Assembly: GCA_049968235.1 (NCBI GenBank)
Contig: JBMFRC010000004.1
Location: 190,013 to 254,012, forward strand
Direction: 5' to 3'
From: Candidatus Hydrogenedens sp.
GTDB taxonomy: Bacteria; Hydrogenedentota; Hydrogenedentia; Hydrogenedentales; Hydrogenedentaceae
DNA: 64,000 nt
The notes beneath the pieces were generated by a model. The model was given only the letters and a program-made list of their open reading frames with translations, was not told the DNA's origin and did no database searches. The position numbers and the translations under genes were made by a program. Positions 44,212-60,849 of this stretch are shown here, in pieces. Each line of letters starts with the position of its first letter. Positions within the stretch are counted from its first letter, which is position 1.

Positions 44212-45762
44212 CTATTTTACTTCTAAAAGTGATTGGGCTGTAACGGTCTTTATTTGATACCATGCTCGGAACAAAGAGACTCGTGCAGAAGCAAGCCTTC
44301 CCTCTGCTTCAATTAAATCTTTCTGTGCCTGATTTAACCGCACCAAAGATGTCTGCCCTGCTTTATATTCCTGTTCCACCAAATCTCTATTTTTTCTGAC
44401 ATATTGGGCATTTTCTCTTTGTAGTTTTAACTGTTCCTGTGCAGATTTTAATTCCTGAAGGGTACTTTGGACATCTGTTATAACATCAATTCTCCCTGCA
44501 TAGTAATTTTGCTCCGCTTCCCGAAGTTTTGCCCTTGCTTCTGCGCGTAATGCGCGATTTTTACCACCCGTAAAGAGGTTATATGAGACATCTACACTTA
44601 CCGTAGTAGCAAAGTCATCGGAACGAAATTCACTATCTACAGTCCGTGTCGCTGAACGGGATAAAGAGACTCCTATTTGTGGGAATAAAGTAGAACGACT
44701 TTGCCCAACCTGTGCTTCGGTTTGTTGAACAATTAATGTCAACATCTTCAAATCAGGTCTGCTTTGTAAGGCAAGTGATAATAATTCGTCCACATTCGGA
44801 GTTTCCAAATCTTTATCGGTTTCATCTTTTAAAGGTGTTAACTTTACATTATCTGGAAGTACACCTGTATTCAAACCCATTACACCTGCTAAGGATATTC
44901 GTGCAATTTCACGATTTTGACGAGCATTTATAATTTGTGCTTCTGCGGACCTCAATAGAACTTCAAAATTTAGGACATCGCTTAAAGAACCTGCTCCTAA
45001 TTCTTGTTTTACTTTTGCTTCATAGAGTTGTCTTTCGTTAAATGCTTTATCTGCTTCTGCTATACGAAGATTCTCCTCTGCTAATTGCACAGCATAAAAA
45101 CTATTTGCTACTGCAGATAATAACATACGGATGGCTTCCTGTTGGGATTCTTCCGTTGCCTTTTCACCTAATTTTGCAAGAGCAACAGAATATTTACGGG
45201 CAAAACCATCAAATAAGGTATAGCGAATGATAAAATTTATTGCATAGTTATTTTGTGATTCCGGAATGCTATTACTTGCTTGATATGCAGAAATCCACGA
45301 GTTTAATACGGTCTCCCATGGGATTGAGGATAGAATATCTGAACCAGTTGTTCCTCCGGCACTTCTAAGAACAGATTGAGAGATTGTATTTGAACTCTGT
45401 TGCCAAACAGCATTCTGTGAATGACGGATAGCAGTATCTGACAACTCTGTGTGTGAAGCGGTATAATTGGCAATAATTTGTGGATAGTACTGAGATAATG
45501 CTTGTTTAACCTTCTGTCGGGCTTGCTCTATCCGTTCGGACACTGCCTTTAATGAGGGGTTCTGTTCTAATGCTATTTTTTGTGCTGTTTGCAGGTCTAA
45601 ATATTCAGGAAGTTCCTGTGTAATCGGGGGAGTATTTCCTGATTGTAATGGGAATGTATCTGTATTTGTATCTTGTGAACTACCTGAAAAACACACGAAT
45701 ATACATAAACTTCCAATCCATATACAGAATAATTTTTTAATATCGAAATTTGCGAATTCCAT
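44212..45762 (-). CDS. TolC-like outer membrane efflux protein (OMF), partner of the RND pump.
   Basis: Signal peptide. Two OEP repeat halves rich in Q/A/L coiled-coil segments. Confidence 0.8.
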   Translation of the reverse strand: MEFANFDIKKLFCIWIGSLCIFVCFSGSSQDTNTDTFPLQSGNTPPITQELPEYLDLQTAQKIALEQNPSLKAVSERIEQARQKVKQALSQYYPQIIANYTASHTELSDTAIRHSQNAVWQQSSNTISQSVLRSAGGTTGSDILSSIPWETVLNSWISAYQASNSIPESQNNYAINFIIRYTLFDGFARKYSVALAKLGEKATEESQQEAIRMLLSAVANSFYAVQLAEENLRIAEADKAFNERQLYEAKVKQELGAGSLSDVLNFEVLLRSAEAQIINARQNREIARISLAGVMGLNTGVLPDNVKLTPLKDETDKDLETPNVDELLSLALQSRPDLKMLTLIVQQTEAQVGQSRSTLFPQIGVSLSRSATRTVDSEFRSDDFATTVSVDVSYNLFTGGKNRALRAEARAKLREAEQNYYAGRIDVITDVQSTLQELKSAQEQLKLQRENAQYVRKNRDLVEQEYKAGQTSLVRLNQAQKDLIEAEGRLASARVSLFRAWYQIKTVTAQSLLEVK

Positions 45763-46354
45763 ATTGTTTTATTAACTCCTCTGTTTGTTGTAATTTTTCG
45801 GGGGGAACATTTTCAATACGATGACCTATTTTTCGTGCTGGGACCCCTGCCCATATTTCCAGAGGTCCTACTTTCGTATCCTCTACAAGGACACTACCCA
45901 CACCAATAATAGCACCATCTCCAATTTCTACCCCTGGATGTATATAACATCGGCTTCCTACAAGGACATCATCTCCGATAATAATCGGTTTGGCTATATG
46001 GGGTGTTAAAGCAAAATGCTCTTTTGTCCCCCAGAATACATGATTTGTATCTCGAATAACTGTAAATTCCGCAACAGCGGTATTACTTCCAATTTGTATC
46101 AATGCTGTAGATTCTAAAATTGTATAGTAACTCAATAGTGAATGGGTCCCCATTATTATTTTTCCTTCTTTATGAGTGCGAAGTATCACATAATCCCGAA
46201 ACCGGCAATAATCCCCGCACTCCACATGTCCCTCTATGGTAAAGTGTTTTCCTTGAATACGACATTTTTTTCCTTTCCTGGCAAATTTCAAGCCATGATA
46301 ATAACTTCGCCAGCGAACTAAAAAAGCCTCAAACATGTTATACAATTCCTCCAA
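45737..46354 (-). CDS. Hexapeptide-repeat (left-handed beta-helix) acetyltransferase (WbbJ/WcaF-like).
   Basis: IGDDVLVGSRCYIHPGVEIGDGAIIGVGSVLVED hexapeptide repeats. Sits between the RND and OMF genes and overlaps the OMF start by about 26 nt. Confidence 0.75.
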   Translation of the reverse strand: MEELYNMFEAFLVRWRSYYHGLKFARKGKKCRIQGKHFTIEGHVECGDYCRFRDYVILRTHKEGKIIMGTHSLLSYYTILESTALIQIGSNTAVAEFTVIRDTNHVFWGTKEHFALTPHIAKPIIIGDDVLVGSRCYIHPGVEIGDGAIIGVGSVLVEDTKVGPLEIWAGVPARKIGHRIENVPPEKLQQTEELIKQYGIRKFRY

Positions 46355-46363
46355 TATCTATTT

Positions 46364-49300
46364 TCATAAGGAACTATTTTCTAATTGCTGTTTTTGTTCT
46401 AACATTGAAAATACAGGCTCTACTTCTTCAGGTTTTGGAATTCTTCGATTTCTAATTGTATATGCTAATCTTCGAATATCATTTAATACACCAATAATAG
46501 CAGGTATAAATAGAAGTGTAACACTAGTCGCAAACACTAATCCTATAGCTAACGAGACTGCCATCGGTTTCAGGAACTGTGCTTGCATATCTCGTGTAAA
46601 AAGCAAACTTATAAGCCCTCCAAATGTAGTAACTGAAGTTAAGAAAATAGCACGAAATCTTCTCTTACCCGCCTGGAGAATAGAAGAAATAAAACTATTC
46701 CCTTCGCCAAGGTTTGCATTAAAGCAATCAACAAAAACAATAGCATCATTAACAACTACTCCGGAAAGGGCAACAATACCGAATAGACTCATAAGTGTAA
46801 CAGTTTGTCCGAACAATAAATGTCCAATCAATGCGCCTACAACTCCAAATGGAATGGTAAGCATAATTAATAGCGGTTGAGAATAAGAATGGAATATCGA
46901 GGAAATAATTAGGAAAATTAATAACAATGCAATAGGAAAACCCACTTTTAAGGAGCTAAGGGCATCACTACTATTTTGTTGAGGTCCTTCAAACGACCAT
47001 ATTAATCCCGGATATTTCCTTTGGAGCAATGGGAGGAAATTACTTGTTAAATCGCCAATAATTTCTGTTGAATTTGCTTTTGTTGTTTCTATATCTGCTG
47101 TTACGACAACTCTTCGCATCCCATCAACACGGGTTATTGAAGAAAATCCAGGAGTATAATCTACATCAGCAACAGCAAATAAAGGAACTTCATATCCTTG
47201 ATTGGTTCGTATGCGAACTTGATTTAATATAGAAAGATAACTTCGGTCCTCACGGGGATAACGAACCCGTATGCGAATATCATCTCTACCTCTTTGTATT
47301 CGGACAGCCTCTTCTCCGAAGAAGCCACCCGCTAATTGTCTTCCTAATGAATCCAGAGTTATCCCCAATGTTTGTGCCTCTGGTTTCAGATAAAATCTCG
47401 CTTCAATTTTTGCAGGTCGATAATCATCCTCAATTTGATAAACTCCATCATAAGTTTTAAGTTTCTCTTTTATCTCCTGGCTTGCACGAATCAGATCTTG
47501 AAGGTTTTCACTCCTTAACCACAACTCAATACCTGTTCCACGGGGACCTCCTCCACTTACATCATATTTCTGTTTTAATGTTCCGGGGATAGTCCCTGTT
47601 TCTTTTGCCCACATGGAAGATAATTTCTTGGCATGAATCCCTCTTCGTTCTGTGGGTAACAATTCTACACGGATTTCACCTACATTACTCCCCCCCTGAG
47701 CCGAAAAACCGCTACTGCTCTGACCCACAACACTGTAAACATTCTGAACTAAAGGTTCACCACTTATTGTTGTTGTTTTTTCTACTAATCGTTTCAAGGC
47801 GGATTCCATCCTCTTCACCGCATCTTTTGTAACATGAAACGGTGTCCCGGAGGGAAACTCAACCTGTGCCATTAAATAGTCCCCATCAGCCTCAGTAAAA
47901 ACTTCAAATTTAATAATTTGCCCCCGAACAAGTCCCATTATTGTTAATAATATAGCAATAGAGGCAGTTAACGAAATGTAACGATGCCTTAACATGGCAT
48001 TTAAAAACGGAAGATATATTTTGTCAACAAAAGCATCAAGGGAATCGCTGAAGAACCATCTTAATTTTTTCAGAGGATGTTTCCGATTATCCGAATTCGA
48101 AATGGTATGAGATAAATCAGGCAAGTCATTAAGGTGAGCGGGGAGTAAGAAGAGAGATTCAAATAGTGATACACTCAACGCTGATATAACAACAATTGGT
48201 AAAATACGGATAAACTTACCCATAATTCCACTTACAAACATTAATGGGATAAATGCGGCTATTGTTGTTGTTACAGCCCCTATCACGGGCAGCCCCACTT
48301 CTTCTACACCCGTTAACGCCGCTTTCATGGGTGGCAATCCTCGCTGGCGATGATAGTATATTGCCTCTCCTATAACAATCGCATCATCAACCAACATACC
48401 TAATACCATGATTAGTCCAAACAATGACATCATATTTATAGTATCCCCATGAATATACATAATACTGATAGCCCCAGCAAAGGAAATAGGAATACCTAAA
48501 GTAACGAAAAAGGACAAACGAGCATCCATTAATAACAACAACATCAAAATAACGATAACTAACCCTTGAACACCATTCATTTCAAGCAAATTTAACCGGG
48601 CTCGAATGAGCCGGGCACTATCGTTCCACACGGAGATTTTTACACCCGGAGGCAATTGTTTTTGTTTCGCCTCTACATATTTATGGACCGCATCGGATAT
48701 AGCTATATCATCTTCCTCCTGTGTTTTGAAACATGAAATCAAAACTGATTTTTCTCCATTAAAATCTGCCTCTAAGGGGTCTTCATTAAAATCATCTCGT
48801 ATTTCCGCTACTTGGTCCAGAGTAATCACTTCACCTGTAGGTTTGGCTAATACTACTATCTTAGCCAATTCATCCGCATAATATTTTCTACCTATTGTTC
48901 GAATACGTATTTCGGCTCCTTTAGAACGAATAAGTCCCCCAGAAATGTTTAAGTTTCCGGAACGAATTGCTGATGCCACCTGTGAAAATGTTAACCCCAA
49001 CTTTTGAAGTTTTTCTTCGGAAATTTCAATTCCTATTTCATACTGTTTCGCACCAAAAATAAAAACCTGTGATAGTTCCGGAAGTGCCTGTAATTCATCT
49101 TTTATCTGTTCTGCCCACTCTTTTAAGATTTTATCGGGTAAATTTCCGGATAATGCAACCTGAATAACTTCACGGCGAATAGTTACTTCATTTGTTATTG
49201 GTTTCTCTGCGTCTTTTGGAAATGTAGAAATAGAATCAATGGCATTACGAACCTTATCATATACCTTACTTAAATCATAACTATCCATTACCTCAATATT

Positions 49301-49576
49301 TGCCATCCCCATATTTTCCGAAGCAACGGTAGTATATCGTTTAATTCCTTCCACAGTATCCAGTGATTCTTCAATTTTACGACAGATGCCTTCCTCAACT
49401 TCTTCAGGGTCTGCACCGGGATAAATTACCTGCACTGTTATCATATCTAAAGAAAATTCAGGGAACAACTCTCTTCGAATTAATAAGAGAGAAATTATTC
49501 CCCCAATTAGGATAACTGCAGTCAGTATATTTGCAAAAACACGGTTTCCAACAAAATACCCTAAGAACTGATTCAT
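46364..49576 (-). CDS. RND family efflux transporter (AcrB/HAE1-type), inner membrane subunit.
   Basis: 1070 aa. 12-TM pseudo-twofold architecture with two large periplasmic loops and typical AcrB N-terminus (…FVGNRVFANILTAVILIGG). Confidence 0.9.
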   Translation of the reverse strand: MNQFLGYFVGNRVFANILTAVILIGGIISLLLIRRELFPEFSLDMITVQVIYPGADPEEVEEGICRKIEESLDTVEGIKRYTTVASENMGMANIEVMDSYDLSKVYDKVRNAIDSISTFPKDAEKPITNEVTIRREVIQVALSGNLPDKILKEWAEQIKDELQALPELSQVFIFGAKQYEIGIEISEEKLQKLGLTFSQVASAIRSGNLNISGGLIRSKGAEIRIRTIGRKYYADELAKIVVLAKPTGEVITLDQVAEIRDDFNEDPLEADFNGEKSVLISCFKTQEEDDIAISDAVHKYVEAKQKQLPPGVKISVWNDSARLIRARLNLLEMNGVQGLVIVILMLLLLMDARLSFFVTLGIPISFAGAISIMYIHGDTINMMSLFGLIMVLGMLVDDAIVIGEAIYYHRQRGLPPMKAALTGVEEVGLPVIGAVTTTIAAFIPLMFVSGIMGKFIRILPIVVISALSVSLFESLFLLPAHLNDLPDLSHTISNSDNRKHPLKKLRWFFSDSLDAFVDKIYLPFLNAMLRHRYISLTASIAILLTIMGLVRGQIIKFEVFTEADGDYLMAQVEFPSGTPFHVTKDAVKRMESALKRLVEKTTTISGEPLVQNVYSVVGQSSSGFSAQGGSNVGEIRVELLPTERRGIHAKKLSSMWAKETGTIPGTLKQKYDVSGGGPRGTGIELWLRSENLQDLIRASQEIKEKLKTYDGVYQIEDDYRPAKIEARFYLKPEAQTLGITLDSLGRQLAGGFFGEEAVRIQRGRDDIRIRVRYPREDRSYLSILNQVRIRTNQGYEVPLFAVADVDYTPGFSSITRVDGMRRVVVTADIETTKANSTEIIGDLTSNFLPLLQRKYPGLIWSFEGPQQNSSDALSSLKVGFPIALLLIFLIISSIFHSYSQPLLIMLTIPFGVVGALIGHLLFGQTVTLMSLFGIVALSGVVVNDAIVFVDCFNANLGEGNSFISSILQAGKRRFRAIFLTSVTTFGGLISLLFTRDMQAQFLKPMAVSLAIGLVFATSVTLLFIPAIIGVLNDIRRLAYTIRNRRIPKPEEVEPVFSMLEQKQQLENSSL

Positions 49577-50922
49577 GAAACAGATTCCTTATCTCCCGAT
49601 TTCTGGATTTCTAATAGTGAATTTTCTATTGGATTAATCAAACGCGTTGTAACAACAACAGTTCCTGGATTAAGACCACTCACAATAACTTCATCACCTT
49701 GAATATATAATCTTTCCACCTGAACCGATTTCAATCGGTCATTCTCTGCGGTATATACTGTCCCTTCAAAACTTACAGCGGTGTCCGGTAACCGATATAC
49801 ACTTGATAATGTTTTGCCCGGAATTTTTACCTGACAGAACATACCCTGAACCAGTGGCATTTTATCATCAGACACCGAAAAAATATTTTCCTTTTCAATA
49901 CGAACAACTGCATAAATAGTCCTGGTTTTCTCGTCATATCTTTCGACACGATGTAGTAACCCTTTCCATTTATGATTTTCTTTATCTTCTGTCCATAGAA
50001 TTTCACATTCTTTAGGCTCTAATGGTGGAAACCATGCAGAATCAATATTTATATTATCCTTTTGAAATGGAAGCCACTGTGTTGCCTGTTTCGCATCTAA
50101 AGGGACGGATATTTCCAGAATGGAATCATCTGAAAGTGTCATTACAACAGAACCAGGGGTTACATATTGTCCTGCTTCAAGATTCACTGTTTTAATCCGT
50201 GCATTAAAAGAAACCTTTACCTGGGTTCGCGATAAATTTATTTCTGCCTGAGATAACTGAGATTCTGCATTTTTCACTGCTTCCTCTGATTCCCTGACTC
50301 GTAAAGGATACAAATCGATAGATTGAACTAATAAATTATAAGCGTCTAATGCTTGATTATATGCCCGTTCCGTTTGCTCAACATTGGATTGCGTACCTAC
50401 TTTATCTCGTTCAAATAACTGTTTCACTCGTTGGAATTCTGAATAAGCAAGATCTTTAGTACGCTCTAATGTTTTAAGCCGTTCTTTATCGGAGGCAAAC
50501 TGTTCTTGTGTTCTTTTCAATGCCTGCTTTGCCTGTTCCAAACTTGCCTGCGCAGATTTTAGTCGAACTTGATAATCACTGGGGTCTATTTCAAATAAGA
50601 CTTCCCCGGCAGGGATAACCTCACCGGCTTCCAATCTTGGATGAATACGAATAACACGCCCTGATACTTCCGGCGCTATAGGGACCGTTGCTAAGGTTCG
50701 AACTTCTCCAAATCCATTTAATATAATCGGAACATTTTCCGGTTGCACCTGAATTACATCAACAGGGATGGGACGTTCTTCCTGTTCTGCTTGTGCTGGA
50801 GGTTTACGAAAGGAAGAAAAGAAAACAAAAGAAATTATTCCCAACAGCAAAATTAGAATAGCGATTACAAATGAGAATAATTTTGCAAATGTAATATATT
50901 TTTTTACTTCTTCGTTACTCAT
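49573..50922 (-). CDS. RND efflux periplasmic adaptor (membrane fusion protein, HlyD/AcrA family).
   Basis: N-terminal TM anchor, long coiled-coil hairpin, beta-barrel C-terminus. ATGA overlap with the RND gene. Confidence 0.85.
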   Translation of the reverse strand: MSNEEVKKYITFAKLFSFVIAILILLLGIISFVFFSSFRKPPAQAEQEERPIPVDVIQVQPENVPIILNGFGEVRTLATVPIAPEVSGRVIRIHPRLEAGEVIPAGEVLFEIDPSDYQVRLKSAQASLEQAKQALKRTQEQFASDKERLKTLERTKDLAYSEFQRVKQLFERDKVGTQSNVEQTERAYNQALDAYNLLVQSIDLYPLRVRESEEAVKNAESQLSQAEINLSRTQVKVSFNARIKTVNLEAGQYVTPGSVVMTLSDDSILEISVPLDAKQATQWLPFQKDNINIDSAWFPPLEPKECEILWTEDKENHKWKGLLHRVERYDEKTRTIYAVVRIEKENIFSVSDDKMPLVQGMFCQVKIPGKTLSSVYRLPDTAVSFEGTVYTAENDRLKSVQVERLYIQGDEVIVSGLNPGTVVVTTRLINPIENSLLEIQKSGDKESVS

Positions 50923-50936
50923 AAAACTTCCTCACT

Positions 50937-51410
50937 TTATTTATTGTTATTCTGAACAGACATTAAGTATTCTCTTATCTTTTTATAAACATCAACCCAT
51001 TGGGAGGATGTTTCATCACCTAAACCTTTTAATAATTCACCTATACCTTTTAACACTTGATTTTCATGCCATTTCATAGATTCACTGGCTTCCGGACTTA
51101 ACCTTATTTGAATTTCTCGACGGTCCTCAGATGACTGCTCACGAACTACCAGTCCCAATTCTACCAATCGGTCCAACATGAGACTTGCCGCAGAAGGGGA
51201 TACATTAAGATATTCCGACAATTCTTTTAAGTTTAAAGGCTCAAAGTTTTTTATCGTCATTAACATATGAAACTGGGGCATAGTAAGGTTATGCTCGAAC
51301 TTTAATTTTTCCTTTTCAGGGGAACAGCAATGAAACCGGCTATGTATCCATTTCTGAATCATTTGAATTGTTTTTAATATCTCATAGGCTGACTGTTCAT
51401 ATCGTTCCAT
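50937..51410 (-). CDS. MarR family transcriptional regulator.
   Basis: Winged HTH LTMPQFHMLMTIKNF...LSEYLNVSPSAASLMLDRLVELGLV. Confidence 0.8.
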   Translation of the reverse strand: MERYEQSAYEILKTIQMIQKWIHSRFHCCSPEKEKLKFEHNLTMPQFHMLMTIKNFEPLNLKELSEYLNVSPSAASLMLDRLVELGLVVREQSSEDRREIQIRLSPEASESMKWHENQVLKGIGELLKGLGDETSSQWVDVYKKIREYLMSVQNNNK

Positions 51411-51449
51411 TATGCATCTCCAACAATTTGTGTAATGCTATCTCTATCT

Positions 51450-51827
51450 TTATATTTTTTTCTTAACTACTTCAATAATTTCATGGACTAATTCGTCCGT
51501 AACAACTGTTTTCCCTTTTTCAACACCTAAATCTGTTATCACAATATGTTCAAATGGTATTTGTCTCTTCTCAAATATTTTCTTCCCACAGGAAACAGGA
51601 CAACCATCTATTACTACATTCCTATCTGCTCCCAAAGCAGATTGGATAAAACCTGAAGAATCAGAGGCTACTCCAGAAAGGCATGAACCACGACATACCT
51701 TCTCTTTTACTAAATTTCTCATAACCCGGTCTGCAATCAGGCCTGTGTTAGCAATACCTGAACATGCGTAAACAAGAATAGTGCCTTTTTCATCAGAACA
51801 ATTACATTGTATAAAATCAATTCCTTT
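51450..51827 (-). CDS. DGC-domain (putative metal-binding) small protein. The ORF track reports 51450..51722, but the conserved N-terminal Cys segment extends upstream with no canonical start codon.
   Basis: The VIDGCPVSCGKK DGC motif lies in the annotated part. Upstream and in frame: ...GIDFIQCNCSDEKGTILVYACSGIANTGLIADRV(M)RNL..., open to about 51827. Confidence 0.5.
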   Translation of the reverse strand, partial: KGIDFIQCNCSDEKGTILVYACSGIANTGLIADRVMRNLVKEKVCRGSCLSGVASDSSGFIQSALGADRNVVIDGCPVSCGKKIFEKRQIPFEHIVITDLGVEKGKTVVTDELVHEIIEVVKKKI

Positions 51828-52001: not shown

Positions 52002-52985
52002 TTGATTAAGATGACTACATTAATAAAATGTGAACTTTGTCCTCGTTATTGCATTCTTGAAGATGGTCAAAAGGGGGAGTGTCGTATTCGCATAAATATA
52101 GAGGGGAAACTTTATACTGTTACTTATGGGCATCCTTGTTCTATTCACATTGACCCTGTTGAAAAAAAACCTCTATATCATTTTTTACCGGGGACACCTA
52201 TCCTATCCCTTGCTACGGTAGGTTGTAATCTTCATTGCAAAAATTGCCAAAATTGGGAAATATCTCAGACAGAACCATACCAATTAGTAACGGAATATGT
52301 AGAACCTGATAAAATTTCCGATCTGGCTGTTCAGTATCATTGTCCTTCCATCGCTTATACCTATACGGAACCACTGGCTTATTATGAATACACTTACGAG
52401 TGCTGTAAAATATCTATTGAAAAAGAATTAAAAAATGTTCTTGTAACTGCGGGATATATTAATGAAGAACCTTACAAACGATTACTACCTTTTATCCATT
52501 CTGCAAACATAGATTTAAAAGGCTTTTCGGAGGAATTTTACAGAACTGTATGCGATGGAACGCTAAAACCTGTATTAAGAACACTGGAATTAACTAAAAA
52601 TGCAGGGGTTGAATTAGAGGTTACAAATTTAGTCATTCCAACATTAAATGATAAAGATGAAGACCTAAAAAAACTTTGTGAATGGGTCGCACATAATTTG
52701 GGGAAAGATACACCGTTGCATTTTTCCCAATTTTATCCACGATATAAAATGACACATTTACCTCCAACACCATTAGAGACTCTTCTAAAAGCACGTCAAA
52801 TTGCTTTAAATGAAGGTTTACAATTTGTATATATCGGTAATATTATTCACAGAGAAAGTTCAAATACCTATTGTCCTTCCTGTAAAACTTTACTTGTTGA
52901 GCGATATGGTTTTAGTGTGCTTCAAAATAATATTTCACAGGGGAAATGTCCCAAATGTAACACGGAGATATATGGAGTATGGTAA
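52002..52985 (+). CDS. AmmeMemoRadiSam system radical SAM enzyme.
   Basis: Family-specific N-terminal Cys motif CELCPRYCILEDGQKGECRIR, followed by ...EKKPLYHF...GCNLHCKNCQNWEISQ (CX3CX2C). Confidence 0.85.
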   Translation: MIKMTTLIKCELCPRYCILEDGQKGECRIRINIEGKLYTVTYGHPCSIHIDPVEKKPLYHFLPGTPILSLATVGCNLHCKNCQNWEISQTEPYQLVTEYVEPDKISDLAVQYHCPSIAYTYTEPLAYYEYTYECCKISIEKELKNVLVTAGYINEEPYKRLLPFIHSANIDLKGFSEEFYRTVCDGTLKPVLRTLELTKNAGVELEVTNLVIPTLNDKDEDLKKLCEWVAHNLGKDTPLHFSQFYPRYKMTHLPPTPLETLLKARQIALNEGLQFVYIGNIIHRESSNTYCPSCKTLLVERYGFSVLQNNISQGKCPKCNTEIYGVW

Positions 52986-53198
52986 TAAATAGACGAAGAT
53001 TTTTATCATATATTTTAACTGCTGTAATTACGAAACAGGGTATTAAAAAACCCTCATTAATCCGGCAAACTTACGCAATACCTCTTTACAATAAGGAACT
53101 TTCTAAATATAATAAGAAAAGTATTTTTTCGTCCAAACCTTCACCATGGATGGGTTAAAATTTAATATAATAAAACAGAATAAATAAGGGGATATTTA

Positions 53199-54734
53199 AT
53201 GAAATATTATTATTTTATTATTTTGTTCTTTCTATTCATTGTTGTTATTCCATTTGCATGTGGTGATAATTCTAATTCGGATAAGGAAAAAGAAATGCAG
53301 TTACCAAAAGTTTATAAATCATTAATAGCAGGTCAATGGTATGATGCATCTCCCGAGAAACTTAGACAGCAAATTTCGGAGATGTTTAATAATGCTAATG
53401 TAGAATCCGCAGGAAATGTGATAGGGCTTATATTACCTCATGCGGGTTATACATACTCAGGATTAACTGCATGTAAAGGAATTAAAACAACGGAAAAATC
53501 TTTACACTCAAGAATAATTATATTAGGGACAAGTCACAGAGCACCTTTAGAGAATATAGTAAGTGTTCCATCTGTGGATTTTTATGAAACTCCATTAGGA
53601 CAAATACCTCTTGACGTGGATACTATTCAAGAATTAAAAAAATTCCCATATTTTAAGGAAGTTCCTTTAGCACAACAGGGAGAGCATAGCGTTGAAATTG
53701 AACTGCCATTGTTACAATACTTAAAAAAAGATTTTAAATTAATCCCTTTAATTTGTGGACGATTGGATATTGAAACGACAGAAAAAATAGCCCGGATATT
53801 ACAAAATTACATAGATGAAAAAACATTGGTTATTGCCAGTAGCGATTTTACTCATTACGGACACAATTACAATTATGTCCCTTTTAGTGAGAATATTCCG
53901 GAAAATATTAAAGAATTAGATATGGGAGCATATCAATATATAGAGAAACGAGATGTGAAGGGATTTTATGAATATATCAAAAGAACAGAAATTACTATTT
54001 GTGGTCCGTATGGGATTGGAGTTTTGATGTATCTATTACCCGAAAATACTCAAACAAAACTTTTAGAATATAAACAATCCGGTGAAATTGTAAATGATTA
54101 TCAGAATTCTGTAAGTTATTTCAGTATTGTTTTTACCGGGACATGTGAAAAGAAAGAAAGGACTCCTATGAATAGTTCAACGACATTAACATCTGAAGAG
54201 AAAAAAGATTTATTAAAATTGGCACGCTGGACACTTGAATATGTGTTAGAACATAACAAATTGCCTGCGGATAACGAAATACCTATTAAAATAACAGAAA
54301 CAATGAAAACGCCACGCGCCGCATTTGTTACATTAAAAATAAATGATGATTTACGAGGTTGTATCGGTGAAATTTTTGCAACGAAATCTATGTATAGGTC
54401 GGTTCTTCAGAATGCATATAATGCAGGCTTTAAAGACCCCCGATTTTATCCTATTACAAAGGATGAACTACCTAAGATTAAAATTGATATATCCCTTCTA
54501 ACACATCCCAAAAAAATAAATCATTATACCGAGATTGAATTAGGCAAACATGGAATTATTCTAAAAAAAGGGTATAACCAGGCTTTATTCCTACCACAGG
54601 TAGCCCCGGAACAGAATTGGAATTTACAGCAAACTCTGGAACATCTGTCTATGAAAGCGGGTTTACCGCCGGATGGATATAAAGAAGGTGCTGAATTTGA
54701 AGTTTTTGAAGCAGAGGTATTCCACGAAGAGTAA
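53199..54734 (+). CDS. Fusion of a Memo-like domain (AmmeMemoRadiSam protein B) and an AMMECR1 domain (protein A), with an N-terminal signal peptide or lipoprotein-like leader.
   Basis: Memo motifs AGQWY, PHAGYTYSG, GTSH, SSDFTHYG. AMMECR1 motif LRGCIGE in the C-terminal half. Leader MKYYYFIILFFLFIVVIPFACGDNSNSDKEKE. AAGGGGA SD before the first ATG. An alternative internal start (MQLPKV, about 53295) would remove the leader. Confidence 0.8.
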   Translation: MKYYYFIILFFLFIVVIPFACGDNSNSDKEKEMQLPKVYKSLIAGQWYDASPEKLRQQISEMFNNANVESAGNVIGLILPHAGYTYSGLTACKGIKTTEKSLHSRIIILGTSHRAPLENIVSVPSVDFYETPLGQIPLDVDTIQELKKFPYFKEVPLAQQGEHSVEIELPLLQYLKKDFKLIPLICGRLDIETTEKIARILQNYIDEKTLVIASSDFTHYGHNYNYVPFSENIPENIKELDMGAYQYIEKRDVKGFYEYIKRTEITICGPYGIGVLMYLLPENTQTKLLEYKQSGEIVNDYQNSVSYFSIVFTGTCEKKERTPMNSSTTLTSEEKKDLLKLARWTLEYVLEHNKLPADNEIPIKITETMKTPRAAFVTLKINDDLRGCIGEIFATKSMYRSVLQNAYNAGFKDPRFYPITKDELPKIKIDISLLTHPKKINHYTEIELGKHGIILKKGYNQALFLPQVAPEQNWNLQQTLEHLSMKAGLPPDGYKEGAEFEVFEAEVFHEE

Positions 54735-54736
54735 TT

Positions 54737-57700
54737 GTGAAGAAATATTTTTTACCCATTGCATTAGGTTTCTTTTCAATCACAGCACAAGCATTGCTTG
54801 TGCGTGATTTTCTACATTGTATCGAAGAAAATGAACTTTCATTAGGTATTCTTTATTTTTTCTGGTTCTTGTGGATTATCCCCGGTTCTCTTGTGGGAAA
54901 ACTTTTATATAAATATTCCCATCTTTTTCCTGTTATCTCCCTTTTTTATATTCCATCATGGCTATGGGGACACTTTTTGGTTCGTAATTCGCGAGATATC
55001 TCAGGCATCGCTACCTATGAACTTTTTGACATTCATTCTCTTTTTTTATACTCCGCAATAGCACCTGCAGGAATAAGTTTTCTTACAGGATTTTTATTTA
55101 CCCATTGTTCCTTATGGTGGCAGGATAATTTTACATATGGAGAAAGCAATTCCAAACCTTCGACGGTAGTTCGTTATGTATATGCTTATGAGGCTTTCGG
55201 CGCAGTATTAGGTGGAATTACTACTTCATTTAGTATTTACCTCGGATTTTCCCATTGGATACCTTTTTGTATTTCCGTAGGATTCCTAATTATTTCCTCT
55301 CTTTTATTATTGGACTATCCATTTTTGAAAAAGGCATTTCTTATCATTCTTCTCCCCTTACTCCTGCTATCAGCATTCCTGCTGGAAACATGGGAAAATA
55401 AATCTTTGTGGGAATATATTACAAAAAATGAAAATTTTAAGGGAAAAATAATTACCCAAAAGGGAGAATATTTATATGGATATGATACCAACCAATTTAT
55501 ACTTTTAAGAAATCTCAAACCTACATTAAGGTTTCCAAATCAAGAATATGGCTTACAGTTACTATCTACTTTTATTGCTCAGAAAAACGATGCTACAAAC
55601 ATTTTACTCATTGGAGAGCCTTTCGTTTATACATTACCTTATCTAATAAATATTAAGAGCATCGAAAAAATTTTATGGATACCTTTTGATTTTGAATTAT
55701 CTACAAAAATTATTTCACTATTGCCTGAAAATTCCCTATTCAATAATAAAAAACTCATTTTCCCGCATAATGAACCTCGTTCTTTTTTGAAAAGCACTAA
55801 TGACAAGTTTGACATTATTCTTGTTTATACGGATAACCCACAAACTATTTCTTCTAATCAATACTTAACAGATAGTTTTTTTAGTTTACTCAAAATTCAC
55901 CTTACAGATAAAGGCATGGCAGGGATTCGAATGTCGGGAGGAGAAAATTTTTTAGGTGGAGAAATATCAGCACTTGGTTCGTCTATATATTTTACTTTCC
56001 AACAGGTATTCAAAGTTAACGCACTAAAACCCGGTGAAGAAACCTGGTTATTTGGCTCTTTGAATTACCCTATAAGTGAACATGTGCCGACCCTTGAACA
56101 ACGATTGTCTAACATATCAGAACAAATCCCGGAAATCAAACCCGGTATCGTAAGAGATCTATATCCCGCTGATAGAATTATTTTTCAAAAAAATCGCTAC
56201 GAGGAAATTAAGAAATTTATCCGTGAAGATTATTTGATTAATACGGAAGACAAATATCTCGGTTTTCTGTATAGCAATCTTTTTTATCTCTGGAAGCAGG
56301 GCTATTCGGGACTGTTAGATAAAATTGATATTATTAAGCAAATTACTCTTTTCCTTTTATTTTCATCTCCTTTATGCTTCTTATTAGCACGCTGGATATA
56401 CAAAAGGAAGTCAATCCGAAAAGGGAAAGAAAAAATTTTTGCTACTACTTTAGAAACATATTTCGCTATTCTTGCTATTGGGACCATTGGCATGGGAATT
56501 TCTATTCTTCTACTTATACAATTTCAATACTGTTATGGAACACTCTCAACTTATATTGGTCTCTTATCATCAATGTTTATGCTGGGACTTTCAACAAGTC
56601 CCATTACCTTTAATTCATTGTATGCGGATAAAAATCATAAGCAATCGTTTTTTGTTGTTTTCTCTCTTTTTTCTATCTGTGCTATTTATACACTTGCGAT
56701 ACTTTTTGAATTGTCCGTTCATTTTTATACCTACCTCGTTATACTCTTTTTATGGGGGCTTTCGTTAGGCTTTCTTCTCTCCATGTTTCTTAATACATTA
56801 GATAAAGAATCAACTACTTCTCAGATTGCGGTAAATTTAGAGATATGGGACCACCTTGGAGCAGGGCTAGGGGCTTTTATATTTCCAATTATTCTACTCC
56901 CTCTGTTCGGATTGCAGTTTTCTGTCGGATTTATTCTCTTATCTCTGCTACTGGTTCTTTTATTTATACCTCTTCTTCAAACAATTCCTGTCTGTAAGTC
57001 TTCATCGTGGGGAAGAGTTTACGGCTATACCTTATTCCCCATCCTTGTATTATGTTTTATCTCTACGGAGATATATCATCGTTCCACAGTTCCCTTACCA
57101 GGAGATGCATTTACAAAAATTGCTCAAGAATTATCTGATGGTGGAAAACTTCAACTTGAAACAATAACGCTTCCTGATAATAGACAACTCCGTTATTATA
57201 CAGTTACAAAAAAAGATGAAAATCAGAATAAAAATATCTCATATATTTTTTCTACTGCTTCATTATTTAAGGTAATTGGATATGGTGGGGAAATGGATAT
57301 CGCCGTTAAGGTATCTCGGGAAGGAAATATTGAAAACATTAAAGTTATTCAATCCAATGAAACCCCTGATTATTTGTCCCGGGTTGAAGATTACTTCTTT
57401 TTATATAAAGGGAAAAATATATTTCAGCCTGAAAGTATCTCGGAAATAGATAGTGTAAGTGGAGCAACAACAACCGCTGATGCTGTGAAGCGTGCTGTCC
57501 AATTTGCGGGAAAAGAATTTGCACAAATTATCCAGAGCAACAACATAACTCAAACAAAAACATCGTTCAATTATGATTTTTCTGCCCCAACGACATACTC
57601 CATATATATCTTCCTCTTATTTATTCTTCTGGCTATAATTTTTCGATTTTTCCATAGTGACTTACTACGGACATTATGGTTAATCTGTGTAGTATTGATT

Positions 57701-58294
57701 TTAGGTTTCTGGCTAAATATCCAATATGGTCTATATTTTATCGTTCAACTTTTATATGTGGATAAGTTACAATTTCATTTAAATGTCCCAACCCTTTTAA
57801 TTATTGGTATTCCTGTGCTCATTTTAATAAACGGCAATATTTATTGTGGGTATTTATGTCCATTTGGAGCGTTGTCCGAACTAATAAGCAAACTGGATTG
57901 GATAAACAAAAAAATAATCCCAACAAAACAAACATGGTATATAACCCGACAGTTTAAATACATTCTTGCTTTTGTATTTTTCTCTACATATTTTTTTAAG
58001 AGAGAAGTAAAAATGATAGATATTGACCCTTTGCTTTCCTTTTTTACTCTGGATATATCAAACTATATAACAATATTTGGAATTTGTGTTTTATTGGCAA
58101 GTTTTTTATATAACCGTTTTTGGTGTAGGGTACTTTGTCCCACAGGTGCTTTTTTAAGTTTAATTCAATCTCTTCGAATATTTTCATTTTTCTGGCAAAA
58201 AACTTTCCCTACACATTGTGACCTTGGAATATCAAGACCTGAAGAAATAGACTGTATTCAATGTAATCGGTGTTATAAACATGAAAAAAAATGA
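54737..58294 (+). CDS. Giant (1185 aa) polytopic membrane fusion protein. N-terminal TM block, degenerate spermidine-synthase-like (PABS/MTase-fold) segment, second TM block, FMN-binding (FMN_bind) domain, and a NapH/NosR-type TM domain with two CX3CP motifs plus a C-terminal CxxCxxC Fe-S motif.
   Basis: SpeE-like: NILLIGEPFVY...DKFDIILVYTDNPQT...FFSLLKIHLTDKGMAGI. FMN_bind: DSVSGATTTADAVKRAV. CX3CP: CGYLCPFGAL and WCRVLCPTGAF. Terminal HCDLGISRPEEIDCIQCNRC. Starts 2 nt after the Memo-AMMECR1 stop. Confidence 0.6.
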   Translation: MKKYFLPIALGFFSITAQALLVRDFLHCIEENELSLGILYFFWFLWIIPGSLVGKLLYKYSHLFPVISLFYIPSWLWGHFLVRNSRDISGIATYELFDIHSLFLYSAIAPAGISFLTGFLFTHCSLWWQDNFTYGESNSKPSTVVRYVYAYEAFGAVLGGITTSFSIYLGFSHWIPFCISVGFLIISSLLLLDYPFLKKAFLIILLPLLLLSAFLLETWENKSLWEYITKNENFKGKIITQKGEYLYGYDTNQFILLRNLKPTLRFPNQEYGLQLLSTFIAQKNDATNILLIGEPFVYTLPYLINIKSIEKILWIPFDFELSTKIISLLPENSLFNNKKLIFPHNEPRSFLKSTNDKFDIILVYTDNPQTISSNQYLTDSFFSLLKIHLTDKGMAGIRMSGGENFLGGEISALGSSIYFTFQQVFKVNALKPGEETWLFGSLNYPISEHVPTLEQRLSNISEQIPEIKPGIVRDLYPADRIIFQKNRYEEIKKFIREDYLINTEDKYLGFLYSNLFYLWKQGYSGLLDKIDIIKQITLFLLFSSPLCFLLARWIYKRKSIRKGKEKIFATTLETYFAILAIGTIGMGISILLLIQFQYCYGTLSTYIGLLSSMFMLGLSTSPITFNSLYADKNHKQSFFVVFSLFSICAIYTLAILFELSVHFYTYLVILFLWGLSLGFLLSMFLNTLDKESTTSQIAVNLEIWDHLGAGLGAFIFPIILLPLFGLQFSVGFILLSLLLVLLFIPLLQTIPVCKSSSWGRVYGYTLFPILVLCFISTEIYHRSTVPLPGDAFTKIAQELSDGGKLQLETITLPDNRQLRYYTVTKKDENQNKNISYIFSTASLFKVIGYGGEMDIAVKVSREGNIENIKVIQSNETPDYLSRVEDYFFLYKGKNIFQPESISEIDSVSGATTTADAVKRAVQFAGKEFAQIIQSNNITQTKTSFNYDFSAPTTYSIYIFLLFILLAIIFRFFHSDLLRTLWLICVVLILGFWLNIQYGLYFIVQLLYVDKLQFHLNVPTLLIIGIPVLILINGNIYCGYLCPFGALSELISKLDWINKKIIPTKQTWYITRQFKYILAFVFFSTYFFKREVKMIDIDPLLSFFTLDISNYITIFGICVLLASFLYNRFWCRVLCPTGAFLSLIQSLRIFSFFWQKTFPTHCDLGISRPEEIDCIQCNRCYKHEKK

Positions 58295-58595
58295 TTTTAT
58301 TTTTTTTACCGTTTCATTACTTTATGTTATTGCCTTTTTTGTCATTTTTATCTATCATATTCTACCTGAAAAATTACCAACAGAATTATCTTATATACAA
58401 ACAGAAGGGGATTCTATAAAACCGACAGGAACTGCAACGGATATTGAAAAAATTAAAAGCATGATACAAAACAATCAACTTTCTGATAAGGAAGCGTTGT
58501 TTTACAAAAAATTGCAGGAAGAGGGAAAAAAAAATCCTCAAAAACATCAACAAATCCGTAATCGTTGGAGACGAGGTAAACAAAGAGATAATTAG
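58281..58595 (+). CDS. Small membrane-anchored hypothetical protein (single N-terminal TM, Lys/Gln-rich tail).
   Basis: FFTVSLLYVIAFFVIFIYHIL TM segment. Overlaps the giant ORF by 14 nt. Confidence 0.4.
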   Translation: MKKNDFIFFTVSLLYVIAFFVIFIYHILPEKLPTELSYIQTEGDSIKPTGTATDIEKIKSMIQNNQLSDKEALFYKKLQEEGKKNPQKHQQIRNRWRRGKQRDN

Positions 58596-58677: not shown

Positions 58678-60849
58678 ATGAATCACGAACAAACAACTAT
58701 CTTTTCCGAAATTCAAACATTAGATTTATTAGAAAAATATAAAATACCTGTGGCAGGATTTCGCATCTGTCATAATTTAAATGAAGTTGTTTCGTCTGCA
58801 CAAGAATTAGGATTCCCGATAACTATAAAAGGCATGGTGGAAGGGATTGCCCATAAAAGCGATTGGGGATTAGTAAAAACAGATATAAAATCAGAAGAAG
58901 ATTTACTCAAAGTAGTGAAAGAGATTCAAAACAACGCACAAGATAAGTGTTTATCCGGATTTTTATTACAAAAACATATTTATGGTAAACGAGAACTTAT
59001 CGTGGGGGGGATGAAACATAATGAATATGGTTTATGTGTTTACATTGGAATAGGCGGTATTTTCGTAGAAGCGTTAGAGGATGCATCTTTTCGTTCTGTT
59101 CCCATTCGTGAAATTGACCTACAAGAAATGATTTATGAATTGCATTTCAAAAAAATCTTTCAATCATTTCGTGGAGACCCTCCTGTTGATATACAAAAAC
59201 TTTTCCAGGTAGTAAAATCCATTGAAAATCTATTAAATAATGAAAAAGAAATCAGTCAATTTGAACTTAATCCCATTTTAATACATTGCGACACACCCAT
59301 TGCAGTAGATGCCCTTGCAATTAAAGGGGATATCATAATAACTGATAAACAATCTGAGATAATATCGCTTGATTTTAATAAATTATTAAGACTATTTGAA
59401 CCGGAAAGTATAGCCATTGTTGGTATAACAGATACTCCAATTAAATGGGGCTTTCGTGTCCTGTTCAATACTTTAGAAGGTGGGTATACCGGAAAAATAT
59501 ATGGCGTTAATCCGAAGCGAAGTGAGGTCCTAAATATTCCTTGTTATCCCTCTATTTTGGATATACCCGAAGTGGTTGATTTAGCAGTTATTATTGTCCC
59601 TCCACATGCGGTTCTACCTTCAGTTCAGGAATGTGTTCAAAAGGGTATTCAAGTCGTTCTTGTTATAACGGCAGGTTTTGGAGAATTGAATGATGAAGAG
59701 GCTCAATCTGCTCAGGAGAAATTAAGACAAATTGCTCGAGAAAATGACCTATATCTTATCGGTCCTAATTGTGCGGGTGTGGTTAGTCCAGTTCCTAAAA
59801 AACTATACTGTTCCATGATAGGAAGATACCCACAACCTGGTGGTTTAAGTATTCTATCACAAAGTGGAAACATTGGAAACACGGCTATGAGTTGGGCGAT
59901 GGAACATCATTTAGGACTATCACGATTTATCAGCACAGGCAACGAAGCAGTTATTAAAAATTACCACTACCTGAACTTTTTTGGTTCTGACCCTAAAACA
60001 AAAGTGATATTTTCTTATATTGAAAGTGCTAAAGATATTCGGATTTTCTTTGATGAATTAAAACATGTAACGAAGAAAAAACCGGTTATAGTATTGAAAG
60101 GAGGCAAAACCCATGCGGGTTCTCGTGCCGCTTCTTCCCACACTGGAGCATTAGCTACTGATTACCGATTATTTCGCGGAATTTGTGTTCAACAAGGGGG
60201 AATCTTAACTGAAGATATTTATGAAGCAATGGAAACAGCTCATCTTCTTTCGAATGTTCCACTTCCTCGAGGCAGAAATGTAGGTATTTTATCTCAGGGA
60301 GGTGGTTGGGGTGTGATTTCTGCAGATGTATGCACAAAAGCAGGTTTAAATGTTGTTCCTCTTTCTGAAAATACATTAAAAAAATTAGATGCTATTATGC
60401 CTAAATGGTGGAATCGGACAAATCCTGTAGATATGGTCGCAGGAACAGATATGGACTTATTTAAAAATTCTATGGAGATATTGATACAGGACGAAGAAAT
60501 CGATATTTTGGTTATCTTAGGTATTGGCTACATCGCAAGTGCTTATGTGCGTTTACAAAATTCGGAACGAGCAAAAAGTTTGAGGCTTGATAAATTATCT
60601 GAATTTGGAACCCAATTGGAGATAAAGGATGCAGAAGAAATTGCAAGACTTATGCAAACATACCAAAAACCCATTATAGTAGCTTCTGATACGACCATTT
60701 TATCACATGGTCAAAATATAAACCCCGTATTAAAAAAACTTGAAGAAATGAACATCTATGTTTTTCAAAATCCAAACAGCATGGCAAAAGCCATCGCTCA
60801 TCTTTGCCAATACAGCGAATATATCCGGGCTACTCCTCGCATTTTTTAA
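58678..60849 (+). CDS. NDP-forming acyl-CoA synthetase (acetate--CoA ligase, ADP-forming family), with domains in beta-alpha order: ATP-grasp first, then CoA-binding/ligase-CoA.
   Basis: N-terminal ATP-grasp (LLEKYKIPVAGF...GFPITIKG). Then CoA-binding Rossmann SIAIVGITDTPIKWGFRV. Then the ligase-CoA domain. GGAG SD upstream. Confidence 0.75.
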   Translation: MNHEQTTIFSEIQTLDLLEKYKIPVAGFRICHNLNEVVSSAQELGFPITIKGMVEGIAHKSDWGLVKTDIKSEEDLLKVVKEIQNNAQDKCLSGFLLQKHIYGKRELIVGGMKHNEYGLCVYIGIGGIFVEALEDASFRSVPIREIDLQEMIYELHFKKIFQSFRGDPPVDIQKLFQVVKSIENLLNNEKEISQFELNPILIHCDTPIAVDALAIKGDIIITDKQSEIISLDFNKLLRLFEPESIAIVGITDTPIKWGFRVLFNTLEGGYTGKIYGVNPKRSEVLNIPCYPSILDIPEVVDLAVIIVPPHAVLPSVQECVQKGIQVVLVITAGFGELNDEEAQSAQEKLRQIARENDLYLIGPNCAGVVSPVPKKLYCSMIGRYPQPGGLSILSQSGNIGNTAMSWAMEHHLGLSRFISTGNEAVIKNYHYLNFFGSDPKTKVIFSYIESAKDIRIFFDELKHVTKKKPVIVLKGGKTHAGSRAASSHTGALATDYRLFRGICVQQGGILTEDIYEAMETAHLLSNVPLPRGRNVGILSQGGGWGVISADVCTKAGLNVVPLSENTLKKLDAIMPKWWNRTNPVDMVAGTDMDLFKNSMEILIQDEEIDILVILGIGYIASAYVRLQNSERAKSLRLDKLSEFGTQLEIKDAEEIARLMQTYQKPIIVASDTTILSHGQNINPVLKKLEEMNIYVFQNPNSMAKAIAHLCQYSEYIRATPRIF

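Follow-up and report, generated by a model that had tools for sequence, protein, structure and literature searches.

The genome of Candidatus Hydrogenedens sp. encodes a 511-residue protein in which a Memo domain is fused to an AMMECR1 domain behind a hydrophobic leader. The gene lies in a 64,000 bp stretch of contig JBMFRC010000004.1 (positions 190,013 to 254,012; hereafter the window, G+C 31-38%) and belongs to a conserved module with a cytoplasmic radical S-adenosylmethionine (SAM) enzyme, a membrane protein of about 1200 residues, and a short tail peptide. We propose, with a probability of roughly 0.6, that the fusion is a lipoprotein exported by the Sec pathway and processed by signal peptidase II, that it resides on the periplasmic face of the cytoplasmic membrane, and that it is served there by a flavinylated transmembrane electron conduit. 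Coordinates of all features are collected in Table 1, and loci in other genomes are designated by L numbers and database proteins by P numbers.

The fusion product is 100% identical to an NCBI protein (P0001) from a metagenome-assembled genome (MAG) of Candidatus Hydrogenedens sp. Pfam searches identify Memo at residues 43-311 (E = 6e-61) and AMMECR1 at residues 339-508 (E = 3e-50), and the NCBIfam models for AmmeMemoRadiSam protein B (TIGR04336, Memo-like; residues 41-312) and protein A (TIGR04335, AMMECR1-like; residues 338-508) score 228 and 166 bits against cut-offs of 26 and 99, respectively. The Memo half is related to human MEMO1 (phmmer E = 7e-38) with the metal-site motifs aligned, the PHAGY, SHR, SSDFTHYG and TICG segments of the fusion pairing with PHAGY, SHH, SSDFCHWG and TICG in the human protein, whose metal-site residues are H49, H81, D189, H192 and C244. 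The metal-site residues of the Memo domain and the LRGCIG motif of the AMMECR1 domain are invariant in an 80-sequence alignment, and the AMMECR1 half matches M. mazei MM0484 (structure 1zq7; E = 7e-37). A Foldseek comparison with human MEMO1 gives a target-normalised TM-score of 0.88 at 32% identity; solved structures of the human protein include iron-bound and copper-bound forms. The AlphaFold2 (AF2) model of the fusion, built with 80 sequences, has a predicted local distance difference test score (pLDDT) of 90.8 and a predicted TM-score (pTM) of 0.86. All residues from 1 to 32 are below 50, and because the low pLDDT is limited to this segment the folded part appears to begin just past the linker, which is what a signal peptide with a tether behind it would give.

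The N-terminus of the longest open reading frame (ORF) reads MKYYYFIILFFLFIVVIPFAC21-GDNSNSDKEKE-M33-QLPKV, with a maximum Kyte-Doolittle mean of 3.2 over 15 residues in the leader and a tether (G22-K37) that differs in length and sequence among orthologues. An original prediction, made from this DNA alone, had described a Memo-AMMECR1 fusion with a lipoprotein-like signal, and the Pfam and NCBIfam domains together with the hydrophobic leader ending in Cys21 bear it out. The Shine-Dalgarno sequence that it placed 6 nt before the ATG of the longest ORF is also where it was said to be, and an in-frame TAA at 53181-53183, 15 nt before this ATG, closes the frame upstream. A second start was suggested at an internal Met preceded by AAGGAA, leaving the choice of start to decide the compartment. 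This Met is present at residue 33 rather than 32, and the AAGGAA (53283-53288, 6 nt before ATG 53295) consists of codons of the Lys/Glu-rich linker.

The ambiguity is only apparent, and translation almost certainly starts at the upstream ATG at 53199. In a DNA alignment with the three closest genomes (L005, L006 and L007, whose fusion proteins are 88%, 84% and 70% identical to that in the window) the AAGGGG and the upstream ATG are kept in L005 and L006, and L007 has a start of its own; the internal ATG is replaced by GTT, AGG and TCT respectively, so that the internal Met is not kept even at 84-88% protein identity. The Cys21 and Gly22 codons in this alignment vary synonymously only (TGT/TGC and GGT/GGA/GGG). 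The 120 database homologues (47-100% identity) have I, V, T, S or other residues at position 33, with S41 and then W47 the first to be invariant. If translation began at Met33 and the leader were not translated, the product would be an ordinary cytosolic AmmeMemoRadiSam B-A fusion; the spacing of AAGGAA and the internal ATG would suit this start, and gene callers do at times choose downstream starts in this family, but with the internal codon absent from all three relatives, the upstream signals conserved, and the leader region evolving as coding sequence, we find it hardly credible.

The leader is a general property of the family. Scoring as a leader any stretch of 15 residues before the Memo domain whose mean Kyte-Doolittle value is 1.8 or higher, we find one in 115 of the 120 homologues, far more than chance would give; the remaining five are truncated calls (such as those beginning MVFIIFIPFAC or MILPVAC) or a fragment. 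A DNA-level census of 80 loci from GTDB species representatives covers Hydrogenedentota, Planctomycetota (Phycisphaerae, Sedimentisphaerales), Verrucomicrobiota/Kiritimatiellia, Lentisphaerota/Victivallales and Aegiribacteria, with further loci in some MAGs labelled Nitrospirota or delta-proteobacteria, and 72 of the 75 loci with a complete 5' end encode a leader. Orthologues uniformly leaderless from the internal Met, an outcome that the original prediction named as counting against it, are not what is seen; the leader is kept in essentially every one. It occurs in two styles, either a lipobox type that closes with Cys or a transmembrane (TM) anchor left uncleaved, and a neighbour-joining tree shows no fewer than 11 switches between them. 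Interchange of this kind is a known pattern for proteins whose only need is a tether on the outer side of the inner membrane. Among 50%-identity representatives, an exhaustive search returned 17,333 relatives at E ≤ 0.001; at least 99 of the best 146 classifiable fusions (36-49% identity) have signal-like N-termini, comprising 37 of the lipobox type, 43 of a plain signal peptidase I type (for example MSIFLSFLVLLYAASAQA/E), and 19 with long hydrophobic (h-) regions. Because the signal peptidase I-type signals in these relatives are cleavable, they are not readable as cytoplasm-facing anchors.

Some database entries appear to lack the leader, and we examined two of them on their contigs. Both have an in-frame leader upstream in the DNA (MKTRAFLCAWILFFALGC for P0190, L086:7908-8000, and MNKIFICVLNGCVFFVFCCCLII for P0159, L089:7890-8000), which rules out taking these calls at face value. 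The 'leaderless' database members of the fusion family are thus partly annotation artefacts, and since gene callers sometimes drop the leader, localisation statistics from databases undercount the exported members. Fusions that are truly leaderless, with stop-bounded frames, are present in L076, L080 and L081 (two Pontiella and one Planctomycetaceae MAG), and these have neither the radical SAM gene nor the gene for the large membrane protein within 8 kb. There are also three leader-bearing fusions (L055, L060 and L084) without these two neighbours over the same distance.

The leader is very probably a Sec-type export signal, judging from its sequence and conservation. It has the layout of a lipoprotein signal, with a positively charged N-terminal (n-) region (M-K), an h-region of 15 residues (7-22 being usual) and a Cys, Cys21, in the first 35 or so residues. 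The original prediction called the leader classic, but the lipobox is not: I-P-F-A-C has Pro at -3 and fails the rule [LVI][ASTVI][GAS]C (PROSITE PS51257), which counts against lipidation. A relaxed pattern matches the query, and the strict PROSITE pattern matches 18-19 of the 120 homologues, the query not being among them. Because the strict pattern misses the query we do not describe the leader as classic, and rely instead on conservation of the Cys and on the residue that precedes it. Every one of the 16 sequences in the Hydrogenedentes-type clade retains the Cys in a leader that otherwise diverges, and members of this clade further from the query have canonical lipoboxes (VSTSC, IAISC, VLTAC) that match the strict pattern. 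Across the family, 38 of 116 leaders have a Cys at the end of the h-region, compared with a background of 1.1% Cys per residue, and the -1 residue is Ser, Ala or Gly in 35 of these 38. This pattern suggests that Cys21 is probably modified with diacylglycerol and the leader cut by signal peptidase II.

A different fate is conceivable for an exported protein of this type, namely that it is not a lipoprotein and is either cut by signal peptidase I after A20-C21-G22, releasing a soluble periplasmic form that begins DNSNSD, or held by an uncleaved signal anchor. The segment P-F-A-C-G/D obeys the -3/-1 rule, with Ala and Gly in the two positions, and has a Pro at -5 that would break the helix, which also speaks against lipidation, and the Pro that breaks the lipobox rule, the plain signal peptidase I signals of many distant relatives, and the uncleaved anchors of many orthologues in the Planctomycetes-Verrucomicrobia-Chlamydiae (PVC) group all lean the same way. 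We nonetheless regard this as unlikely, in view of the invariant Cys in an otherwise divergent leader, the canonical lipoboxes of the more distant Hydrogenedentes-type orthologues, and the small residues before the Cys; a soluble form in addition fits the interchange of lipobox and anchor less well, since that interchange points to a need for membrane tethering.

The genomic setting of the fusion is well conserved. To its left is the gene for the radical SAM enzyme dedicated to the system (TIGR04337, cut-off 220 bits, score 387 bits), and the order radical SAM enzyme, fusion, large membrane protein is found in 66 of about 75 informative loci, in Hydrogenedentota, Planctomycetota, Verrucomicrobiota, Lentisphaerota and others. 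Partial loci included, 69 leader-bearing fusions have the large membrane protein as a neighbour and three do not, whereas none of the leaderless fusions has it and three lack it (Fisher p = 3e-4, phylogeny ignored). In six loci (L004, L025, L026, L037, L050 and L065) a gene for the flavin transferase ApbE is located directly downstream of the gene for the large membrane protein.

The large membrane protein itself has Pfam matches to FMN_bind, Fer4_5 and, weakly, Spermine_synth. The flavinylation motif within its flavin mononucleotide (FMN)-binding domain is kept in 42 related loci. Fer4_5 (PF12801; E = 2e-12) matches two stretches, in which the CX3CP motifs are CGYLCP and CRVLCP, and the NCBIfam NosR and NapH models match in part. 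As the NosR model (NF046105) reaches 46 bits against a cut-off of 1000, and over the C-terminal module only, the protein is by its sequence NosR/NapH-like in architecture and not NosR. An AF2 model has 20 TM helices, and with the N-terminus inside the density of Lys plus Arg is 0.169 in inside loops and 0.078 in outside loops; every short outside loop has 0-1 such residues, and the loop following TM helix 8 has seven in 18 residues. An earlier Kyte-Doolittle scan for TM helices gave a self-contradictory topology and missed a helix at 607-628, and was replaced by the AF2 boundaries and the Lys plus Arg count. From the modelled helices and the positive-inside rule we infer that the FMN_bind and spermidine-synthase-like domains are outside, and the CX3CP motifs and the Cys cluster inside. 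For comparison, the FMN domain of PceC was shown to lie outside by peptide shaving (PMC5928378). The spermidine-synthase-like domain falls below the model thresholds (PF01564 E = 0.004, 17 bits against a cut-off of 22.9; TIGR00417 19 bits against 250) and has the loop ILLIGEPF in place of GGGDG, although relatives of the protein carry precomputed PF01564 matches. A spermidine-synthase fold in the periplasm could not use SAM or decarboxylated SAM, and the degenerate loop is consistent with this; the domain is probably not an aminopropyl or methyl transferase. Taken together, the coupled synteny, the flavinylation motif, the ApbE genes in relatives and the topology model support the further suggestion of the original prediction that the fusion acts in the periplasm beside the FMN_bind domain of its neighbour.

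The fourth component is the tail peptide. A hidden Markov model with the consensus GQPRDVD-q-ir-mI----LSD-EAeFYKK matches the ORF in the window (E = 3e-16) and all 62 of the loci that contain the 3' end of the gene for the large membrane protein (for example L001:15126-15455 and L003:15379-15486). The tail is a separate ORF of approximately 104-120 residues in Hydrogenedentota and a few others, and in PVC genomes it constitutes the last ~50 residues of a longer version of the large membrane protein, separated from the Cys cluster by an additional TM helix; because of this extra helix the tail should face the periplasm. The motif has an E-x3-Y arrangement and is encoded in a module with a radical SAM gene; interpretations of it as PqqA-like or as a phosphotyrosine-peptide ligand of Memo were considered and not adopted.

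The presence of genes for a TolC-like outer-membrane factor, AcrB and an HlyD adaptor in the window indicates that the organism is diderm and has a periplasm. Elsewhere in the window an ORF at 36679-37722 (minus strand) has a canonical lipobox and polar linker, LIAGISC-KSTPKEEQ, resembling the C-GDNSNSDKEKE of the fusion. Several observations nevertheless weigh against a periplasmic, conduit-served fusion. The radical SAM enzyme has no leader and so is cytoplasmic, on the other side of the membrane from the proposed site of the fusion. Stand-alone Memo and AMMECR1 proteins are cytosolic, as the original prediction noted, although this does not extend to the fusion family, in which a signal peptide is the rule. 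Many PVC orthologues have Lys or Arg directly after the Cys or TM helix, a placement that impairs export through Sec in E. coli. Within the 64-kb window no ApbE gene was found, the AF2 model of the large membrane protein is of moderate confidence (15 sequences, mean pLDDT 77.6), and only synteny suggests contact or electron transfer between the fusion and the FMN domain.

Some of these points would be accommodated if the leader were a reverse anchor (N-out, C-in) holding Memo-AMMECR1 on the cytoplasmic face, close to the conserved radical SAM enzyme and to the end of the neighbour that has the Cys cluster; a cytosolic location is after all that of the canonical proteins, and basic residues often follow the helix or the Cys in PVC orthologues. 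The charge distribution runs the other way, with a mean net charge of +2.3 in the N-terminal flank and +0.7 in the C-terminal flank (N > C in 82 sequences, N < C in 13), and enrichment of a lipobox Cys and signal peptidase I-type signals in relatives would be senseless for a cytoplasm-facing protein. ApbE is a known periplasmic enzyme, yet in Phycisphaerae loci it has the same style of anchor as the fusion (and in one Hydrogenedentota locus a lipobox); this ApbE and the HlyD adaptor in the window, likewise periplasmic, share with the fusions an anchor followed by Lys or Arg. Most of the soluble parts of the neighbour are also predicted to be outside. We therefore consider a cytoplasm-facing fusion quite improbable, and favour the exported, lipid-anchored form.

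For the exported form we envisage the following sequence of events. Translation from ATG 53199 would yield a precursor whose first 20 residues act as a Sec signal, with the unfolded Memo-AMMECR1 portion crossing the cytoplasmic membrane; Cys21 would then be lipidated and the leader removed by signal peptidase II, leaving C21-E511 attached to the inner membrane, on its outer face, by a polar tether of ~16 residues. There the exported fusion would work with the translationally coupled large membrane protein, whose covalently flavinylated FMN_bind domain outside and CX3CP/Cys-cluster module inside would constitute a trans-membrane electron conduit, supplying or removing electrons for the Memo metal site. 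LigB-type relatives of Memo need a reduced metal, and it is for this reason that we suggest the conduit role, tentatively and somewhat short of an even chance. Ring cleavage dependent on O2 is unlikely, as the hosts are anaerobic and rely on a radical SAM enzyme. The periplasm-facing tail, LSDxEAxFYKK, could be a further component, a dock or a substrate. The radical SAM enzyme would stay in the cytoplasm, where it might prepare a membrane-soluble substrate that is finished outside, or act on a component before its insertion into the membrane. Modification of the fusion by the radical SAM enzyme before export ranks low, because the enzyme resembles glycyl-radical activases, whose product would not be expected to survive unfolded transit through Sec. 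A more specific and rather unlikely extension is that the four genes encode an undescribed trans-membrane redox machine, in which an FMN-fed Memo metal centre on the outer face acts on the Tyr-containing tail or on a membrane lipid that the radical SAM enzyme has already acted on; if true, this would place the Memo and AMMECR1 domains in a biochemical context for the first time.

Table 1. Features of the Memo-AMMECR1 module and of neighbouring genes, in window coordinates.
Feature	Position	Strand	Description
TolC-like OEP	44212-45762	-	resistance-nodulation-division (RND) efflux set, 44212-51722 region
AcrB	46364-49576	-	RND efflux set
HlyD adaptor	49573-50922	-	N-terminal signal anchor, then Arg/Lys, like the PVC-type fusion anchors
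MarR regulator	50937-51410	-	follows the efflux set
DGC-domain protein	51450-51722	-	follows the MarR regulator
AmmeMemoRadiSam radical SAM enzyme	52002..52985	+	327 aa, no leader; Pfam Radical_SAM
Sigma-70-like promoter match TTTACA-17-TATAAT	53085..53113	+	in the 213-bp gap between radical SAM enzyme and fusion; 11/12 positions
Shine-Dalgarno AAGGGGA	53186..53192	+	6 nt before ATG 53199; direct sequence reading
Fusion ORF	53199..54734	+	511 aa: signal peptide, linker, Memo domain, AMMECR1 domain
Leader M1-C21	53199..53261	+	n-region MK, h-region YYYFIILFFLFIVVI, lipobox-like P-F-A-C21; Cys codon 53259-53261
Polar low-complexity tether G22-K37	53262..53309	+	GDNSNSDKEKEMQLPK; contains the internal ATG (Met33, 53295-53297)
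Memo domain, aa 38-313	53310..54137	+	metal-site residues H81, H113, D216, H219, C268
AMMECR1 domain, aa 330-511	54186..54731	+	LRGCIG motif (C388)
Large polytopic membrane protein	54737..58294	+	1185 aa; GTG start 2 nt after the fusion stop
Spermidine-synthase-like domain, aa 222-529	55400..56323	+	degenerate glycine loop ILLIGEPF; predicted periplasmic
FMN_bind domain, aa 848-924	57278..57508	+	PF04205 E = 6e-14; predicted periplasmic
Flavinylation motif D-S-V-S-G-A-T911	57458-57469	+	D-S-V-S-G-A-T-T-T fits the ApbE consensus [S/T]G[A/S]TX[S/T]
NapH/NosR-like membrane module	57593..58291	+	two CX3CP motifs (C1037, C1130), C-terminal Cys cluster; predicted cytoplasmic
Tail ORF	58281..58595	+	104 aa, one TM helix then tail; overlaps the end of the large membrane protein gene by 14 nt
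Tail motif L67-SDKEALFYKK-77	58479-58511	+	after the TM helix, within ...TDIEKIKSMIQNNQLSDKEALFYKK...

The gap between the radical SAM enzyme and fusion genes has several features. The promoter match suggests that the fusion and the downstream genes may own a promoter, although such matches are weak in AT-rich DNA (17 sites found where 10 are expected). A block TTAAAATTTAATATAAT (~53154-53170), separate from the promoter match, is conserved in close relatives. In a further set of genomes the gap contains a small ORF of 54-60 aa (L003:9816-9998, L004:9835-9999, L086:7717-7899, L088:516-680 and ~45 others) with a twin-arginine-like N-terminus (MTRREFI..., ...RRHFLRRLL...); in L086 and L088 it ends in READFYR, which is the motif of the tail peptide. 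It is of no known family, and neither this ORF nor the tail ORF matched a Pfam or NCBIfam family. It is absent from the corresponding interval in the window (52986-53198) and from Hydrogenedentota.

Outside the module, an ADP-forming acyl-CoA synthetase-type gene (ATP-grasp_5, CoA_binding, Succ_CoA_lig; 58678-60849, plus strand; L001:15509-17692) follows the tail in Hydrogenedentota only, and is likely to be plain synteny rather than part of the system. The RND efflux set is not conserved beside the module in L001. Elsewhere in the window there are very large membrane proteins with an N-terminal PMT_2-type glycosyltransferase region and long tetratricopeptide repeat (TPR) arrays (2800-4983, plus strand; 30979-34749, minus strand), and the ORFs at 4997-7642 (plus strand) and 12847-15060 (minus strand) are probably further proteins of this kind. 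Glycosyltransferase-like and radical-SAM-like ORFs lie among them, and together these genes suggest a large region devoted to envelope glycosylation.

The Memo and AMMECR1 domains are both ancient and both linked to human disease, and we know of no reaction assigned to either. The observations described here indicate that a large bacterial branch is consistently exported or tethered, and just as consistently paired with a flavinylated NapH/NosR-type conduit and a short peptide. They narrow the candidate functions to a reaction outside the cytoplasm that requires electrons and takes place at a metal site, and name concrete partners for reconstitution. AMMECR1 itself is one of the uncharacterised archaeal families given top priority (PMC6393860). 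In the open-access literature searched we found no paper linking AMMECR1 to a periplasmic or FMN-binding context (Burroughs et al. 2019 was outside the search), only incidental mentions of AmmeMemoRadiSam, and no paper in which AMMECR1 and isoprenoid occur together. Within the literature searched, the signal for export or anchoring carried by the B-A fusion, the flavinylated conduit as an obligatory partner and the tail peptide are new relative to AmmeMemoRadiSam as described.

AmmeMemoRadiSam is a three-gene system of unknown function, and the locus in the window conforms to it in that TIGR04335, TIGR04336 and TIGR04337 all score above their cut-offs, the genes are adjacent, and the motifs are intact. 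It differs in that proteins B and A are fused and carry an export/anchor signal, in having two extra conserved components (the ~1200-residue membrane protein and the tail peptide), and in placing the radical SAM enzyme across the membrane from its presumed partners. A single shared cytosolic compartment, which is assumed for canonical AmmeMemoRadiSam without being a formal family feature, does not describe this locus, where the fusion has a signal and the radical SAM enzyme has none; a supposedly unitary system would thus be split over two compartments, which constrains the role of the radical SAM enzyme. With human MEMO1 and the LigB-type (class III) extradiol dioxygenases the Memo half shares the fold and the His/His/Asp/His/Cys metal site, but MEMO1 is cytosolic and stand-alone, and the protein here is probably exported, is fused to AMMECR1, and comes from strict anaerobes. 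The alternation of lipobox and TM anchor is paralleled by the efflux adaptors AcrA (a lipoprotein) and EmrA (TM-anchored), an analogy of targeting without homology.

The closest architectural parallels are with the NapH-like systems, including NosR-NosZ and PceC/RdhC with reductive dehalogenases. The main text and part of the supplements of a survey of flavinylation (Meheust et al. 2021, PMC8238504) present NapH-like flavinylated proteins as a modular extracytosolic electron-transfer device, most of whose clients are unknown, and do not include Memo or AMMECR1 among the clients. The large membrane protein in the window has the corresponding elements, with PF12801 and TM helices, an FMN_bind domain that carries the ApbE motif and is outside in the predicted topology, CX3CP motifs and a cytoplasmic Cys cluster, and as in NosR-NosZ, PceC/RdhC and the clusters of that survey its gene is beside that of a signal-bearing enzyme, with ApbE adjacent in some relatives. 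It departs from these systems in adding ~15 TM helices and a spermidine-synthase-like domain N-terminal to FMN_bind, and in that it would serve a Memo-AMMECR1 fusion, where their clients are respiratory reductases or oxidases.

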